From an uncultured Myxococcales bacterium (GTDB lineage: Bacteria > Myxococcota_A > UBA9042), in assembly GCA_903955385.1 (NCBI GenBank), contig CAJBNH010000033.1, positions 27,586-91,585 on the forward strand: a DNA stretch of 64,000 nt, in the 5' to 3' direction. Shown in pieces: positions 17,732 through 24,941 of the stretch. Position 1 is the stretch's first letter. Each line of letters begins with the position of its first letter. The notes under the pieces were generated by a model, which did no database searches, had not been told where the DNA came from, and saw only the letters and a list, made by a program, of their open reading frames with translations. The translations under genes were made by a program, and so were the position numbers.

Positions 17732-18796
17732 TCAGACGGCCGGGATCTGCTGGGTGATGCAGTGGATGCCGCCGTACTGCGACACAAGGGCCCGCGCGTC
17801 CAGACCGATCACCTGACGACCGGGCAGCAGCTCGCGAAGGATGGCCAGTGCGGCGTCGTCGGTCTTCTGGCGGAACACCGGGACCAGCGCCTTGCCGTTG
17901 GCGAGGTAGAAGTTCGCATAGCTGGCCGGCAGGTGCTCGCCCTGAAAGCGAATCGGCTCGGGTACGGGCAGCGCCACGATCTGAAACGGTCGTCCATCGG
18001 CGCCGCGCATCGCCTTGAGCCGCACGATGTTTTCTGCCATCGCTTCATGGTCCAGATGGCCCGGCGGCGGAGCGACCACAACGATGGTGTCGTCCGAAAC
18101 GAACCGCGCCATGTCGTCGATGTGGCCGTCGGTGTCGTCGCCTTCGAGTCCGTCGCCGAGCCAGTGCAGACGCTGCACGCCCAGATGGTCCTTCAGGCTC
18201 TTTTCGATACCAGCGCGGTCGAACTCCGGATTGCGATTGGTGTTCAGCAGCACGGACTCGGTCGTCAGCAGGTCGCCCCGGCCGTTGACCTCCAGCGACC
18301 CGCCCTCCATCACCAGACCGGGCTCGATCCGCGGCAGGCCCCACGTGCGGTTCATCTCGCGCGGCACCAGATTGTCCAGCTCCGAAGCAAACTTGCCGCC
18401 CCAAGCGTTGAAGCCCCAGTCGAGCATCGCAAGCTGCTGCGCCGCCTGGGGGTCCAAGGCCTTGACGAAGATCGGCCCGTGGTCGCGCGCCCAAACGTCG
18501 TCGCTGTCGACGAGATGCCAGACCAGCCGCTTGGGGTCGCCGCCGGCGCGCGTCACGTTGTTCAGCGCGCGGTCGCGCCACTCGGCGTGCGGGACGTTGA
18601 TGTGGACGGTCTCGACTTCGCTCAGTTCCGCCGCCAGCTTCGCAAAGAGCGATAGGACGGCGTCATGAAGGCCGCGCCAGATCGCCGGACGATGCGGCCA
18701 AGTGAGAACCGTACCCTCGTGTGGGGCCCACTCGGCGGGCATACGGTAGTGGCGAACGTCGAGAGACGGGTCGAGGTCCATGGACGGATCCTGCAC
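17732..18796 (-). CDS. aguA: Agmatine deiminase (porphyromonas-type peptidyl-arginine deiminase family)
   Basis: The N-terminal RMPAEWAPHEGT motif and the WARDHGPIFV, DGHIDDMARFV and GGIHCITQQ motifs are present. An alternative start lies at 18742/18781. Confidence 0.85.
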   Translation of the reverse strand: MQDPSMDLDPSLDVRHYRMPAEWAPHEGTVLTWPHRPAIWRGLHDAVLSLFAKLAAELSEVETVHINVPHAEWRDRALNNVTRAGGDPKRLVWHLVDSDDVWARDHGPIFVKALDPQAAQQLAMLDWGFNAWGGKFASELDNLVPREMNRTWGLPRIEPGLVMEGGSLEVNGRGDLLTTESVLLNTNRNPEFDRAGIEKSLKDHLGVQRLHWLGDGLEGDDTDGHIDDMARFVSDDTIVVVAPPPGHLDHEAMAENIVRLKAMRGADGRPFQIVALPVPEPIRFQGEHLPASYANFYLANGKALVPVFRQKTDDAALAILRELLPGRQVIGLDARALVSQYGGIHCITQQIPAV

Positions 18797-18924
18797 TGCG
18801 TGCGTGCGATGCGCTCAGCGAGCGTAAACGGCTGAAACAGGACGACCGACGTTCGGGTGAACGTGGAGGGGGTCGTCAGTGGGCGGATGAACAGCAAGGA
18901 AGGATCCTTTCGAGGGGCAGGGGC

Positions 18925-19815
18925 TCAGCCCTGAGGCTCGTCGTCGTTGGATGCGGCGAATCGCCGGTCGATACCGGCATAGGCGTCGATTCGGCGATCG
19001 CGGAAGAAAGGCCAGATGTTGCGCACCTCGGCCTGGCGGTCGCGGTCGCAGTGCACGATCTGTAGCTCGGCGTGGGTCTGCGAGGCGTCCACAAGCCACT
19101 CGCCCAGCGGGCCGACCGCGAAGCTGTGGCCCCAAAAATCGATACCGCCCTCGCGTCCAACGCGATTGACGGCCGCGACGAACACCCCGTTGGCGATCGC
19201 GTGACCACGCTGGACGGTCTGCCAAGCGTCCAGCTGCCGGGCGTGCTCTTCCGCAGGCTCGCTGTCGATGCTGCCGATGGCGGTGGGATAGACGATCACC
19301 TCGGCGCCCTGCAGCGCCAGCAACCTCGCGACTTCCGGGTACCACTGGTCCCAGCAGACCAGCACCCCCACCTTGCCAAAGCGCGTCTTGAACACCTGCG
19401 GCGGCAAGTCACCGGGAGTGAAGTAGAATTTCTCAGCGTACAGGGGGTCCTGCGGAATGTGCAGCTTGCGGTACTTGCCCAGCAGCGTGCCGTCTGCGTC
19501 CAGCACGACCGCGGTGTTGAAGTACACGCCCACGCCAGCGCGCTCGAACAGGGAACCGACGACCACCACGCCACACTCGGCAGCGACTTGTCCCAAGCGA
19601 CGCGTGCCGGGACCGGGGATCGGCTCCGCAAGGGCGAAGTGCTTGGTCTCCATCTCCTGGCAGAAGTACGGCGAGCGGAACAGCTCGGGCAGGACGCAGA
19701 TTTGCGCGCCCTGGGCCGCTGCCTCGCGAATGGCGCGAACGCCGTCTTCGAGCCGATCGCCGCCGTCGGCGTTGGCACGCAACTGCAACAAACCCAAAGT
19801 GAACGACGCAGCCAT
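18925..19815 (-). CDS. aguB: N-carbamoylputrescine amidase (nitrilase-superfamily C-N hydrolase)
   Basis: The Glu-Lys-Cys triad motifs are present (…CVLPELF…, KLHIP, VLVCWDQWYPE). It sits next to aguA, which gives the agmatine-to-putrescine pathway. Confidence 0.85.
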   Translation of the reverse strand: MAASFTLGLLQLRANADGGDRLEDGVRAIREAAAQGAQICVLPELFRSPYFCQEMETKHFALAEPIPGPGTRRLGQVAAECGVVVVGSLFERAGVGVYFNTAVVLDADGTLLGKYRKLHIPQDPLYAEKFYFTPGDLPPQVFKTRFGKVGVLVCWDQWYPEVARLLALQGAEVIVYPTAIGSIDSEPAEEHARQLDAWQTVQRGHAIANGVFVAAVNRVGREGGIDFWGHSFAVGPLGEWLVDASQTHAELQIVHCDRDRQAEVRNIWPFFRDRRIDAYAGIDRRFAASNDDEPQG

Positions 19816-19986
19816 CGGACGTCCTCGCGCTCGCAGGGGCAGCCATAGGGTGGGGAGCGGACCGGGCGACATAGCCGTTCCCGGCCGGGCGCGTCAAATG
19901 GCGCGGACGCAGAGGCTCACCAAGCAACGCTTGCTCCCGACCCGCAAGGTGCGCGAACCTGTCCTGCATTCCCTGAGGAGGTTCCG

Positions 19987-21480
19987 TTGTCCGCTCCCGT
20001 CGCACCCGCCGCCTTTCCGTCCTTGCGCATCGCTCGCGACGCCCTGACCCCGCTTGGGCCGTTCGCGGAAGCGCAGGCGGCGTTCCTGCGCCCCGACGCC
20101 CGTGCCGTACAGGAACTGGACGACCTGCTGCGCGACAGGAACGTCGGCGTGGTCGCGCACTTCTACATGGACCCGGAGCTTCAAGGCGTTTTGTCGGCAT
20201 GCAAGTGGCCACACATCCACATCTCCGACTCGCTGGTGATGGCGGACCGCGCAGTCGACATGGCCAAGGCAGGCGTGCAGGCGATCTGCGTCGCTGGCGT
20301 GGACTTCATGGCCGAGAACGTCCGCGCCGTGCTGGATCATGCGGGATTTGCCGCGATTGCCGTGTACCGACTGGCGGCGGGCGAGATCGGCTGTTCCCTG
20401 GCCGCATCGGCAGAAGCACCGGCCTACGCTGCGTTTCTTCGCCAGGCCGCACAGACGCCGAATTCGCTGCATGTCATCTACATCAACACCAGCCTGCGGG
20501 TGAAGGCGCACGCGCATCGGCTGGTCCCCACGATCACCTGTACGTCGTCGAATGTGGTTCGCACGATCCTGCAAGCGACCTCGCAAGTCGCGGACCTGCA
20601 CCTTTGGTTCGGCCCCGACACGTACATGGGTGAGAACCTGCGCCACCTGTTCACCGCCTACGCGCAGCTGCCGGACGACCGCATCCGCGCGCTGCACCCG
20701 GCCCACGATCAGGCCTCGATCCGGGGGCTGCTGCAACGGTTCCACCCATTCCAACAGGGCAATTGCATCGTGCATCAGTTGTTCGGCCCCGCCGTGGCCC
20801 AAGCCGTGCGCGAGCGACACTCCGACGCCTTGATCACGGCCCATCTGGAAGTACCGGGCGAGCTGTTTGCGCTGGCGAGTCAGGCGGCTGTCGAGGGCAG
20901 GGGCGTTGTAGGCTCCACCTCCGACATTCTGGGCTGCATCGTGGACCACGTGAGAGCGGCGCTGCGCCAACCCGGACCGACGCGAATTCCTGTCGTTTTG
21001 GGGACGGAAGCCGGCTTGATGACCTCGATCGTCCTTGGCGTGCAGGCGGTGCTGCGGGCAAGTGGCCGGGATGATGTCACGGTCGAGATCCTGTTTCCGG
21101 TGGCTGCCGAAGCTGCCACTGCCGATGCCGACTCTCCGCTTGGCGTGATTCCGGGTGCCTCCAACGGAGAGGGTTGCTCAACCGCAGGCGGCTGCGCGAC
21201 CTGCCCGTACATGCGCATGAATCACTTGGACGGGCTGCTGGACGCGCTGCAGCTGGTCGGGACACCGAGCGCGGCACTCGAGGCGCTGCGGCCCCGCATG
21301 GACCCGCACCGCGTGGCGGGACAGACGGTGGCACAGCTTGGGTCGGTGCCGATCCTGCACATGCGCGACTTCCAGCGCAGCGGTCGGCTGAGCGACGTGC
21401 TGGTGACCGAAGTGACCGGGCGGACGCCGTTGCGCATGTCTCTGGAAGACCTGGCGTCCTGGCCAATGCTCCGGGCTTGA
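19987..21480 (+). CDS. nadA: Quinolinate synthase NadA (long form with N- and C-terminal extensions)
   Basis: NadA core motifs are present (VVAHFYMDPELQ, …DSLVMA…, ITCTSSN, TCPYMRMN for the third Cys). The start is a TTG at 19987 preceded by a GGAGG RBS. Confidence 0.85.
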   Translation: MSAPVAPAAFPSLRIARDALTPLGPFAEAQAAFLRPDARAVQELDDLLRDRNVGVVAHFYMDPELQGVLSACKWPHIHISDSLVMADRAVDMAKAGVQAICVAGVDFMAENVRAVLDHAGFAAIAVYRLAAGEIGCSLAASAEAPAYAAFLRQAAQTPNSLHVIYINTSLRVKAHAHRLVPTITCTSSNVVRTILQATSQVADLHLWFGPDTYMGENLRHLFTAYAQLPDDRIRALHPAHDQASIRGLLQRFHPFQQGNCIVHQLFGPAVAQAVRERHSDALITAHLEVPGELFALASQAAVEGRGVVGSTSDILGCIVDHVRAALRQPGPTRIPVVLGTEAGLMTSIVLGVQAVLRASGRDDVTVEILFPVAAEAATADADSPLGVIPGASNGEGCSTAGGCATCPYMRMNHLDGLLDALQLVGTPSAALEALRPRMDPHRVAGQTVAQLGSVPILHMRDFQRSGRLSDVLVTEVTGRTPLRMSLEDLASWPMLRA

Positions 21481-21542: not shown

Positions 21543-23258
21543 ATGTCGGAAGCCCGCCCGCCGCTCCCCCCCGACGACTCGCCCGCCGCTGGCTTGGACG
21601 CCACCCGTCCGCTCGGCGGTCGGCCGCCCCCTCGCGCTGTCACCCGTCTGGAGTGGACCGCAGGCAAGCCCCTGAGCGGCCGCTACGTGATGGTCGACAA
21701 GCTGGGCGAGGGCGGCATGGGCACCGTCTACCTCGTCGAGGACCTGTTGCTGCGCCGACGGGTCGCTCTGAAGACCGTGTTCGCGGAAGACGCTTTTGAG
21801 CCCGCGGACATCGAGCGTTTTCGCAAGGAAGTTGCGCTCGCCCACAGCATCAACCACCCCAATGTCGCGCGGACCTACGACCTCGGTGAGGAGGGGGGCG
21901 TCCACTTCCTGAGCATGGAGCATCTGCGGGGCGAGACGCTGATGGCGCGCATCCGGCGCGGTCCCGTGCTGACCTCCAAAGAGGTGCGCGAGGTCGCCGT
22001 ACCGCTGTGCCGAGGCTTGGCAGCCGCTCACCGGTCGGGCGTCGTCCACCGCGACCTGAAGCCCGCGAACGTGATGCTGGTGCCCGACTCGCGCAAAGCC
22101 GTGATCATGGACTTCGGCATCGCCCGGTCGATGGGCGAGGCGATGGGCGATGAGGTGACGCTGTCACGGCCTCGCGTCGGTGCGACGGTTTGGGACGTGA
22201 CCTCGGCCGGTCTGGGCACCCCCGCGTACATGGCACCGGAGCAGTGGGACTCGGCCAGCGGCGATCAGCGCACCGACATCTACGCCTTGGGCGTGATCCT
22301 GTTTGTCTGCTTGACCGGACAGGCGCCATATGCCGCTGACACGCCTACGGAATTAGGTGACCGGCATCGCCAGTCACCGGTGCCCGACGTGCACGCATTG
22401 GCAGCGGGCGTCGACCGCGATCTGGCAGCGCTGATCCGCAGGTGTCTGGCCAAGCGCCCGGAGGACCGGCCGCAGTCGGTCGACGAGCTGCTGGAGCTGC
22501 TGGAGCGGGGCGAGCGGCGCAAGCGATTCGCGTTGCAGTTGACCACTGTGTTGCTGTCCAGCGCCGCCGTCCTTGGTCTGTTGGGCTGGTCAGTCTATGC
22601 CGTCGCCGAACAGGCGGTGCTGCAAGAGATGCGGCCGGCCCTGTCCAGACTGGCGGAGCTGGTGGCGCACGACATCGACCCCGCCGACATGGATCGGGTC
22701 CGGACTTCCGCCGACATCGACACCGCGCCGTTTCGGCGGGTTCACGCCATCATGGAGCGATACCACAGGGAAAACCCGGAGATCCGTTACTTCTACACGA
22801 TGCGGCCGGGGGCCTCTCGCGGGCTCTACCACTACGTCGTCGACGAGCAGCCGCGCGACCGGGACCTGAATGGCGACGGACAGATCCGCAACACTGCGAC
22901 GTTCTTCGAGGAGGGCACGCCCCCCGGTGAGTTCTACGACGGGCGCGACATGCCCGCGATGGCCGCGACGGTGGACACGGGGCGACCGCATACGGATCAG
23001 GACTTCGCGCGAGACGGCCTGGAGATCACGCTGTCGGGGTACGCTGCGGTGCCGATTGGGGAAAAGCCGGCGCGGTACTTCGTCGCAGTGGACGTCACCA
23101 ACGACCAGTTGTCGCGGCTGCGGCTCGCACTGACGGGGTTGTTGGGACTTGCGGAGCTTGGCCTCTGCATCGCGTTCTCGTTCCTGCTGGCCCCCGGTCG
23201 ACAGCACCGCCGCGCCCTTGCTGCATGGGCTCGCAATCGCGCGCAACCGCACACCTGA
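21543..23258 (+). CDS. Membrane Ser/Thr protein kinase with a C-terminal extracytoplasmic sensor domain bracketed by two TM helices
   Basis: Hanks kinase motifs are present (LGEGGMGTVY, VALK, HRDLKPANVML, DFGIA, APEQ). There is a TM helix at ~aa 325-345. A ~200 aa extracytoplasmic domain follows, then a second TM helix at the C-terminus. Confidence 0.9.
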   Translation: MSEARPPLPPDDSPAAGLDATRPLGGRPPPRAVTRLEWTAGKPLSGRYVMVDKLGEGGMGTVYLVEDLLLRRRVALKTVFAEDAFEPADIERFRKEVALAHSINHPNVARTYDLGEEGGVHFLSMEHLRGETLMARIRRGPVLTSKEVREVAVPLCRGLAAAHRSGVVHRDLKPANVMLVPDSRKAVIMDFGIARSMGEAMGDEVTLSRPRVGATVWDVTSAGLGTPAYMAPEQWDSASGDQRTDIYALGVILFVCLTGQAPYAADTPTELGDRHRQSPVPDVHALAAGVDRDLAALIRRCLAKRPEDRPQSVDELLELLERGERRKRFALQLTTVLLSSAAVLGLLGWSVYAVAEQAVLQEMRPALSRLAELVAHDIDPADMDRVRTSADIDTAPFRRVHAIMERYHRENPEIRYFYTMRPGASRGLYHYVVDEQPRDRDLNGDGQIRNTATFFEEGTPPGEFYDGRDMPAMAATVDTGRPHTDQDFARDGLEITLSGYAAVPIGEKPARYFVAVDVTNDQLSRLRLALTGLLGLAELGLCIAFSFLLAPGRQHRRALAAWARNRAQPHT

Positions 23259-23279
23259 CACCCTGAGGAGCACCGCGGC

Positions 23280-24941
23280 ATGGCCCACGACCCCGCCACT
23301 CCCAACCACGCGCCCGGCGCCCTCCCGTCGCCGCCAGCGGGACCTGCGCCGCGACCGAGACCACGCCCGCCCGTGCGCTCGATCGATTGGACGACCGGGC
23401 GATTGCTGAACGGCCGGTACCGCATGGTCCGCAAGCTGGGCGCAGGCGGCATGGGCGCCGTCTACCTGTGCGACGACGTGCTGCTGCGGCGACGAGTTGC
23501 GCTGAAGACCCTGTTCTCGAATGCGCAACTGGATGAGGAGGACCTGGACCGCTTTCGCCGCGAAGTCTCGATCGCCCATGCCGTCAACCATCCCAACATC
23601 GCGCGCACCTATGACTTGGGCGAGTCGGCCGGCGTCCACTACCTGACGATGGAGTTCCTGGAGGGTCGGACGCTGGTGGACCGCCTGCGCGAAGGCGCTG
23701 CCATGACCTCCGCAGAGGTGCGCGAGATCGCGGTCCCGCTGTGTCAGGGCCTGCGGGCCGCCCACCGCGCCGGCGTCGTGCACCGTGACCTCAAGCCTGC
23801 GAACGTGATGCTGGTGAACGACGACCGCAAGGCCGTCATCATGGACTTCGGCATCGCGCGAGCGGGAGATGAGGACGAGCAGCACGGAACCCGCGCACCG
23901 CTGGAGCAGAACGCCACCATTCCTTGGGAAGTGACCTCGGCGGGCCGCGGTACACCGACCTACATGGCCCCAGAGCAGTGGGACGACGAGAGCGGCGATG
24001 CCCGCACCGACATGTACGCCTTCGGGGTCATCCTGTTCGTGTGCCTGACACGTCGCGCCCCATACCGCGCGGAAAGTGCCGAAGCACTGGCGATGCTGCA
24101 CAAGAACGCGCCGATCCCGGACGTTGCGGCGTTGGTGCCCGGCGTCGACCGGGACCTGGCCAAGTTGATCCGTCACTGTCTGGCCAAGCGCCCGCAGGAC
24201 CGCCCGGACAGCGTGGACGCCGTGCTGAACGAGCTGCAGCGAGGTGCCCGTCGCCGCAAGCAAGTCCTTTCTCTGGCAGGGATTTCGCTGGCACTCGCCG
24301 GGCTGCTGCTGTTGACCGGACTGGGCCTGTGGACGATGGCGAAGTCGGCCGTCATGCAGGAGATGCGCCCCTCGCAGGCGCGTCTGGCAGAGGTGATCGC
24401 GCTGCAGATGGATGCGCGCGCCTTGGACGAGGTCAACCGCACCAAGGCCATCGACTCACCGGCCTTCGTACGCGCTCACCGGGTGCTCGAACGCTACAAG
24501 GACTCGAATCCTGAGCTGTTGTCGTTGTACGTGATGCGCTCGACCTCGCACGACAACCAGTACGAGATCGTCGTCGACCTGCTGCCCAAGGACCGCGACC
24601 TGAATGGCGACGGCGTGATCAGTCAGGAGGAACAAGGTTCCGCACCAGGGCGGCGCTATGACGGCAGTGGCACACCCGCGATGGCTGAGGTGTTGCGGAC
24701 CGGCAGGGCGGGGTCCGACACGGACTTCGTCGCGGACGACTGGGGCCTATCGCTGTCGGGCTACTCACCGGTGGTCGAGGACGGCCGAACGACCGCGTAC
24801 TTCGTAGGCGTCGATGCCCGTAACGACCAACTGGAGCGGCTGCGGGTGCGTCTGGCCGTGCTGTTCAGCGTGGTCTGGCTGTTGGGTACGATCAGCGTCA
24901 CGATCGCGCGCTTGGTCATGGATCGGCGCGCGCAAGCGTGA
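23280..24941 (+). CDS. Membrane Ser/Thr protein kinase, tandem paralog of the upstream gene with the same TM-sensor-TM architecture
   Basis: Same kinase motifs (LGAGGMGAVY, HRDLKPANVML, DFGIARA). The sensor domain aligns with the upstream paralog and contains DLNGDGVISQEE. Confidence 0.9.
   Translation: MAHDPATPNHAPGALPSPPAGPAPRPRPRPPVRSIDWTTGRLLNGRYRMVRKLGAGGMGAVYLCDDVLLRRRVALKTLFSNAQLDEEDLDRFRREVSIAHAVNHPNIARTYDLGESAGVHYLTMEFLEGRTLVDRLREGAAMTSAEVREIAVPLCQGLRAAHRAGVVHRDLKPANVMLVNDDRKAVIMDFGIARAGDEDEQHGTRAPLEQNATIPWEVTSAGRGTPTYMAPEQWDDESGDARTDMYAFGVILFVCLTRRAPYRAESAEALAMLHKNAPIPDVAALVPGVDRDLAKLIRHCLAKRPQDRPDSVDAVLNELQRGARRRKQVLSLAGISLALAGLLLLTGLGLWTMAKSAVMQEMRPSQARLAEVIALQMDARALDEVNRTKAIDSPAFVRAHRVLERYKDSNPELLSLYVMRSTSHDNQYEIVVDLLPKDRDLNGDGVISQEEQGSAPGRRYDGSGTPAMAEVLRTGRAGSDTDFVADDWGLSLSGYSPVVEDGRTTAYFVGVDARNDQLERLRVRLAVLFSVVWLLGTISVTIARLVMDRRAQA

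Follow-up and report, generated by a model that had tools for sequence, protein, structure and literature searches.

A putative calcium-binding Dx[DN]xDG loop in the Cache-like sensor domain of two tandem receptor-type Ser/Thr kinases from an uncultured Myxococcales bacterium

Results

A 64-kb stretch of DNA from an uncultured Myxococcales bacterium (contig CAJBNH010000033.1; here called the window; 67% G+C) carries two tandem open reading frames (ORFs) on its forward strand, which we call K1 and K2. Each encodes a Hanks-type Ser/Thr kinase with a C-terminal cassette of two transmembrane (TM) helices enclosing an ectodomain. In the ectodomain of K2 lies a 12-residue loop that the initial annotation described as a canonical EF-hand calcium-binding loop, uncommon in such a sensor and particular to K2. 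Here we report that the loop belongs with the Dx[DN]xDG calcium-binding loops as Rigden and Galperin define them (PMC3123361) and not with the EF-hands, and that it recurs at the same position across a large family of Cache-like sensor domains. The features of the two genes are the following, with TM helices called by a hydropathy scan and lengths in amino acids (aa).

21543-23258, + strand: K1, Hanks-type Ser/Thr kinase, 571 aa, with C-terminal TM-ectodomain-TM cassette (ORF; Pfam Pkinase, E 1.8e-44)
21684-22475, + strand: protein kinase domain of K1, aa 48-311 (Pfam PF00069)
22527-22607, + strand: TM helix 1 of K1, about aa 329-355
22608-23123, + strand: ectodomain of K1, aa 356-527, Cache/PDC-like, fitting the same family profile as that of K2
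22863-22913, + strand: variant loop of K1, DLNGDGQIRNTATFFEE, aa 441-457 (hmmalign places E456 at loop position 12)
23124-23198, + strand: TM helix 2 of K1, about aa 528-552
23265-23270, + strand: GAGGAG, a Shine-Dalgarno-like sequence 9 nucleotides 5' of the K2 ATG (read from the sequence)
23280-24941, + strand: K2, Hanks-type Ser/Thr kinase, 553 aa, with C-terminal TM-ectodomain-TM cassette (ORF; Pfam Pkinase, E 2.1e-48)
23418-24215, + strand: protein kinase domain of K2, aa 47-312 (Pfam PF00069)
24264-24338, + strand: TM helix 1 of K2, about aa 329-353, with an RRRK cluster on the kinase side
24339-24848, + strand: ectodomain of K2, aa 354-523, single-Cache/PDC fold
24597-24632, + strand: EF-hand-like Dx[DN]xDG loop of K2, DLNGDGVISQEE, aa 440-451 (from the translation), between strand β2 and the helix before β3
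24645-24659, + strand: conserved P-G-x-x-Y shortly after the K2 loop, aa 456-460 (in the family P 91%, G 98%, Y 89%)
24849-24914, + strand: TM helix 2 of K2, about aa 524-545, with a short basic tail after it

K1 and K2 are paralogs with 54% identity over the whole protein and 46% in the ectodomain. Both have complete catalytic motifs (a GxGGxGxV glycine loop, VALK, HRDLKPAN, DFG and APE), and we rejected a reading as histidine kinases on the Pfam Pkinase matches, which identify Hanks-type Ser/Thr kinases. NCBIfam matches are confined to the kinase part, every one of them below its equivalog cut-off. The stop codon of K1 and the start codon of K2 are 21 nucleotides apart, and the two genes are presumably co-transcribed. 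The segment of about 170 aa in each protein is extracytoplasmic, since it lies between two TM helices with Arg/Lys clusters beside them on the kinase side and in the C-terminal tail; this agrees with the initial annotation, and in a Myxococcota organism the location would be the periplasm.

The ectodomain of K1 or K2 is matched by no Pfam or NCBIfam model, the sole match being sub-threshold EF-hand_5 over the 12 loop residues; no Cache-clan Pfam model matches either domain even below threshold, and some homologs give sub-threshold matches to sCache_3_3, Cache_3-Cache_2, dCache_1 and sCache_3_2. With only the two paralogs as input, the AlphaFold2 model was of mediocre quality in the loop; with a 46-sequence family alignment it reached a mean predicted local distance difference test score of 95.4 (94-96 in the blocks containing the loop) and a predicted template modeling score of 0.90. 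Structural matches included DctB, WalK, KinD and many chemoreceptor Cache domains, and Foldseek was concordant. By the description of Cache domains in PMC4822843, the domain fills the region between two TM helices; a long N-terminal helix runs on from TM helix 1, and there is a PAS-like sheet; and a signaling output domain is found in the same protein (Pkinase here, other outputs in homologs). The domain lacks only a match to a Cache-clan sequence model above threshold, and we therefore assign it to the Cache superfamily by fold and architecture, not by hidden Markov model.

In the numbering of the domain (to which 353 is added to give the K2 residue) the loop occupies residues 87-98 of the model, after strand β2 (74-80), and DSSP assigns coil to residues 81-95. 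The loop is thus coil through position 9, and positions 10-12 (residues 96-98) form one helical turn, after which come Gly/Pro-rich coil, the conserved Pro-Gly and a short strand with the conserved Tyr. The initial annotation had named burial in a β-strand as the finding that would tell against coordination of Ca2+; the high-confidence model places the loop in ordered coil.

The translation of 24597-24632 fits the EF-hand loop consensus over all 12 residues, as had been claimed, with D1, [DN] at positions 3 and 5, G6, a hydrophobic residue at 8, a polar residue at 9 and an acidic residue, E451, at position 12. A scan of all six frames of the window for the stringent form D-x-[DN]-x-[DN]-G-x-[ILV]-x-x-x-E gave this one occurrence; from the six-frame composition, chance alone would yield 0.004 occurrences in the window, and 0.0004 in a protein of 553 aa with this composition. 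The first ten residues, D-L-N-G-D-G-V-I-S-Q, are an exact fit to the 10-residue definition Dx[DN]xDGx[ILV][DSTN]x (PMC3123361). What stands of the "canonical EF-hand" of the initial annotation is thus the sequence of the 12-residue loop and not the EF-hand proper: a β-strand precedes the loop, a 3-residue turn follows it, and each domain has a single loop. Accordingly we rejected a true EF-hand, for which flanking helices and a paired loop are missing and the loop stays below the cut-offs of Pfam and PROSITE.

Three other loop-bearing modules were considered. Type I dockerin, with two tandem repeats of about 22 residues, was rejected given the single loop and sub-threshold Dockerin_1 matches in only 2 of 46 domains. 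The Excalibur domain has the signature DxDxDGxxCE, and it was rejected since no Cys follows the loop. Lanmodulin has Pro at loop position 2 as its hallmark; a lanmodulin-like lanthanide site is unlikely, as position 2 has no Pro and is mostly L/T/Y/E/A/I across the family.

Both kinases contain DRDLNGDG (22857-22880 and 24591-24614), in which two D-x-[DN]-x-[DN]-G registers overlap at an offset of 2 residues. A similar extension is seen in many homologs (for example DVDLNGDG and DKDGDGDG), and in 44% of family copies an Asp precedes D1 by two residues (position -1); it may be an additional ligand or reflect an alternative slipped register.

Word-index homolog searches returned nothing for the K2 ectodomain and one match for the 46-sequence profile. 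The family was recovered only when HMMER was run exhaustively over 1.84 billion cluster representatives (clusters at 50% identity), which gave 754 representatives with E<=1e-3, of which 255 had E<=1e-10. Conservation was computed on the best 150 of the 754 family proteins, which share less than 50% mutual identity. They contain 237 copies of the domain, and the 229 that are close to full length were used. Of these, 196 have a D-x-[DNS]-x-[DNS]-G motif, always in the same columns of the profile alignment, and in 173 the loop is fully canonical. The conservation of the loop positions is as follows.

Position 1: D 92%
Position 3: N 74%, D 14% (N/D 88%)
Position 5: D 69%, N 22% (D/N 91%)
Position 6: G 86%
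Position 8: I/V/L 85%
Position 9: D/E/S/N/T about 81%, Asp 41%
Position 12: D 45%, E 44% (D/E 89%)

Since the same columns are conserved across most of the 229 copies, the loop is a hallmark of the whole sensor-domain family and not an oddity of K2. Within this large family the loop is the rule: it is found at the same position in 76-86% of copies, or about 80%. In nearly all cases the domain has a TM helix on either side. Among 75 family proteins scanned for output domains, 13 have an N-terminal Pkinase, 13 a C-terminal SpoIIE/PP2C phosphatase, 8 HATPase_c and 6 HisKA; HAMP-GGDEF, HD and nucleotide cyclase outputs also occur. In their source annotations the sampled members are named by their output domains only.

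Searched against all Protein Data Bank (PDB) sequences, the 46-sequence profile found its best matches almost exclusively in EF-hand proteins (Entamoeba CaBP1/2, calcineurin B, calmodulin and lanmodulin, the last also among the NCBIfam matches), only over the loop and with E values of 1e-3 to 0.07. A two-sequence profile found nothing significant in the PDB, and the profile search of PDB sequences turned up no solved structure of a family member.

Outside the loop, positions conserved at 85% or more are Y64, R67, D80, P103-G104, Y107, D133, W135-G136, A143-P144 and D159 (domain numbering). These core positions are equally conserved in the 45 copies without the canonical core motif and in the 184 copies with it. 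It follows that neither the fold nor the probable function of the core or pocket depends on the loop, which behaves as an accessory module.

The K1 ectodomain carries a variant of the loop. The stretch 22863-22898 (+) translates in frame in K1 to DLNGDGQIRNTA. The K1 loop retains D1, N3, D5, G6 and I8, has Arg at position 9 and has a 4-residue insertion, TATF, ahead of a Glu-Glu pair. The initial annotation called this site degenerate for want of Glu at position 12. The site does depart from the consensus; the Glu is displaced and not simply absent, the profile alignment placing Glu456 at position 12 after the insertion. An insertion inside an otherwise canonical loop occurs in 21 other family copies, and for this reason the insertion alone may be tolerated. 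Arg at position 9, on which K1 fails to fit Dx[DN]xDGx[ILV][DSTN]x, is its clearest defect. Elsewhere, W135L, G136E and P144A set K1 apart from the family consensus, and D37A does so for K2, so that the K1 sensor is the more divergent of the two. In two close orthologous loci the ligand positions of K2 are unchanged (E11D only) and K1 has G4R in one, the genomes being too close for this to carry much weight. A different metal responsiveness of K1 and K2, as had been proposed, is possible.

The locus is 99% identical to that of a Myxococcota metagenome-assembled genome (MAG; L002) with the same tandem kinase pair. The same tandem kinases are found in a locus with 96% protein identity to that of the window on contig CAYURO010000007.1 (L001), a MAG titled uncultured Enterobacteriaceae bacterium; this taxonomic label is probably mistaken. 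Four homologous kinases occur singly, their gene neighborhoods being unrelated, and the K1/K2 tandem is on this ground a lineage-specific duplication; a tandem pair of one canonical and one degenerate kinase was rejected as a family-wide rule, the four being single and their contexts varied. On the groundwater-metagenome contig of one homolog (P0006), the opposite strand has a second Ser/Thr kinase gene, of 761 aa, about 1.8 kb upstream (L005, 1-2236, - strand).

Some homologs reach 1000-1400 aa (P0002, at 3001-7239 of L008, and also P0001, P0003, P0005, P0012 and P0018). They begin with an N-terminal region of about 300 aa, with matches to the winged helix-turn-helix (HTH) models TrmB, HTH_24 and MarR_2 in 6 of the 75 proteins scanned, and continue with 2-5 TM-domain-TM cassettes, most with their own EF-like loop and the last often without one. 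They form an unusual polytopic array of sensor domains.

Other genes of the window are listed here for completeness.

17732-19872, - strand: agmatine deiminase-like gene (PAD_porph, E 2e-111) adjoining a carbon-nitrogen hydrolase gene (E 2e-62), the usual pair for conversion of agmatine to putrescine, located upstream of the kinases but encoded on the other strand
19987-21480, + strand: NadA-like ORF of 497 aa with an assumed TTG start; quinolinate synthase match at residues 43-318 (about 215 of 295 profile positions), followed by an unmatched C-terminal extension of about 180 aa
28525-30066, + strand: ORF of 513 aa without a Pfam match, with a hydrophobic N-terminus, a very acidic low-complexity stretch of about 170 aa rich in Asp, Val, Ala and Thr, and a Cys-containing C-terminal domain; possibly a secreted or envelope protein

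Discussion

Our results favor the view that K1 and K2 are receptor-type Hanks kinases with a single-Cache sensor in which Ca2+ bound by the loop serves as a cofactor or co-signal. We consider this view probable, with considerable room for doubt, and the two kinases good candidates for calcium-dependent sensing. In the model that we propose, one Ca2+ would be bound in EF-hand fashion, with D440, N442 and D444 contributing their side chains, V446 its backbone carbonyl and S448 a water molecule, and with E451 as a further ligand. In Cache/PDC domains such as those of CitA, DctB and the chemoreceptors, the β2-β3 connection forms a side or lid of the ligand pocket, and its movement on ligand binding displaces TM helix 1 and so controls the cytoplasmic module. 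With the loop inserted after β2, bound Ca2+ would rigidify or order this connection, and the loop may thereby act as a lid. The ion would assist a sensor that has its own conserved pocket (Y417, R420, D433, Y460, D486, W488 and D512), and TM helix 1 would pass the state of the ectodomain on to the cytoplasmic kinase, whose activity may in this way be coupled to the loop.

This interpretation should be taken with some caution, since several points weigh against it. First, the loop does not satisfy PROSITE PS00018, which requires a hydrophobic residue at position 13 where K2 has Gln, and Pfam EF-hand_5 scores 13-15 bits on the loop, below its cut-off of 25.9 bits. Secondly, in about 17 copies (about 7%) the loop is cleanly deleted and the core intact, and the fold is therefore independent of it. 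Moreover, the neighborhoods of the four homologous kinases differ and offer no functional clue. Finally, it is from the motif that we infer Ca2+ binding, and the proposed place of the loop beside the ligand pocket derives from general Cache topology, not from structural superposition.

The strongest alternative is that Ca2+ itself is the signal, the family being a dedicated extracytoplasmic Ca2+-sensor module in which occupancy switches the output directly with no other ligand. It would account for the conservation of all ligand positions in very divergent members that carry Pkinase, SpoIIE/PP2C, HisKA/HATPase, HAMP-GGDEF, HD or cyclase outputs, and for the siting of the loop in the β2-β3 connection, which is where Cache domains respond to ligand; the PhoQ sensor of the Cache clan provides a precedent, and molecularly defined bacterial Ca2+ sensors are few (PMC10574481). 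Yet the residues of a potential small-molecule pocket are conserved whether or not the loop is present, and members in which the loop is deleted retain the rest of the domain. In addition, extracellular Dx[DN]xDG sites are mostly structural (PMC3123361), and environmental Ca2+ is often enough to saturate an EF-type loop. Because the loop behaves as an accessory module, with the core conserved without it, we rank the cofactor or co-signal reading above Ca2+ as the only signal, to which we give perhaps one chance in a few. A wider and still more speculative proposal is that the family is a widespread prokaryotic external-Ca2+ receptor module serving Ser/Thr kinases, PP2C phosphatases, histidine kinases, cyclic di-GMP cyclases and HTH regulators, with K1 and K2 as a two-kinase unit whose one canonical and one altered site would give a differential or ratiometric metal response; we think this rather unlikely.

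It is improbable, in our judgment, that the loop takes another cation (Mg2+, Mn2+ or a lanthanide), or that it binds no metal and is a rigid acidic surface through which proteins or the envelope are contacted. EF-type loops are able to bind Mg2+ or Ln3+, lanmodulin is among the weak PDB and NCBIfam matches, and the frequent Asp at position 9 could be read in the same direction; on the other hand, the lanmodulin-hallmark Pro is absent from position 2, and Gly6 with a hydrophobic residue at 8 and an acidic one at 12 is the classic Ca2+ signature, and nothing in the data points toward a partner protein for an acidic surface. A chance or compositional resemblance in a functionless Asp/Gly-rich loop, which the unmet Pfam EF-hand and PROSITE thresholds and the ease with which Asp-rich motifs arise (PMC3123361) might suggest, is effectively refuted by the small expectation for the window and by the shared register of most family copies at less than 50% identity.

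Few bacterial sensors of external calcium are understood molecularly, and of the examples found (LadS, CarS, CvsS and PhoQ) none uses an EF-hand-type site. The present analysis identifies a large sensor-domain family, with at least 754 clusters at 50% identity and no Pfam or NCBIfam model, that has a canonical loop in a Cache fold. If Ca2+ is bound, this would be a new structural context in which the Dx[DN]xDG motif occurs, and D1 or E12 would provide a simple mutable handle on Ca2+-dependent signaling for many output types, among them receptor Ser/Thr kinases, the ligands of which are mostly unknown. No Cache-like family with an EF-hand-type loop for its signature was found in Pfam-A (2025), NCBIfam (2026), the PDB or the searchable literature, which covered few subscription journals, so that an earlier description is possible.

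With respect to known kinases, K1 and K2 resemble PknB-type receptor kinases in their N-terminal cytoplasmic Hanks kinase, TM helix and extracytoplasmic sensor, and differ from them in that the sensor is Cache-like, has a second TM anchor and lacks PASTA repeats; NCBIfam PknB_PASTA_kin matches the kinase part only, at 255-265 against an equivalog cut-off of 450. Ser/Thr kinases linked to Cache domains are already known (table in PMC4822843). Compared with the PDC (sCache_3-like) domains of the CitA/DcuS/DctB type, the present domain has 12-19% identity, with no Cache-clan Pfam model at threshold, and is about 40 residues longer, the extra length including the β2-β3 Dx[DN]xDG loop; the output here is an N-terminal Ser/Thr kinase, whereas theirs is a C-terminal histidine kinase.

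Among systems that respond to divalent cations, the PhoQ sensor reacts to Ca2+ and Mg2+ through an acidic patch that bridges to the membrane. Like the K1/K2-type domain it is a periplasmic PDC-fold domain, with a state that depends on divalent cations; unlike it, PhoQ has no Dx[DN]xDG loop, and no sequence relationship between the two was detected. PhoQ_sensor is a listed member of the Cache clan (PMC4822843). LadS (with a DISMED2 sensor), CarS and CvsS are membrane kinases responsive to external Ca2+ (PMC10574481); in contrast to K1 and K2 they have other sensor folds and are histidine kinases, and none is described there as having an EF-hand-type loop.

The K2 loop shares with the EF-hand loops of calmodulin, calcineurin B and Entamoeba CaBP the ligands at positions 1, 3, 5, 7, 9 and 12, Gly6 and Ile8, and differs from them in having no entering or exiting helix and in being unpaired, with one loop per domain. 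The closest likeness is to the loops of Rigden and Galperin, which show near-identical Ca2+ coordination in many unrelated folds, mostly extracellular: the K2 loop has the exact pattern and is likewise extracellular, in an unrelated fold and in a strand-loop-helix-like context (PMC3123361). The Cache/PDC host fold is absent from that survey, the text of which makes no mention of PAS, sensor or kinase contexts, and Ca2+ binding in the present case is predicted. The Cache sensor domain and the Dx[DN]xDG loop are thus each well known, and divalent-cation sensing by the Cache clan is precedented in PhoQ; in the family described here the two occur together.

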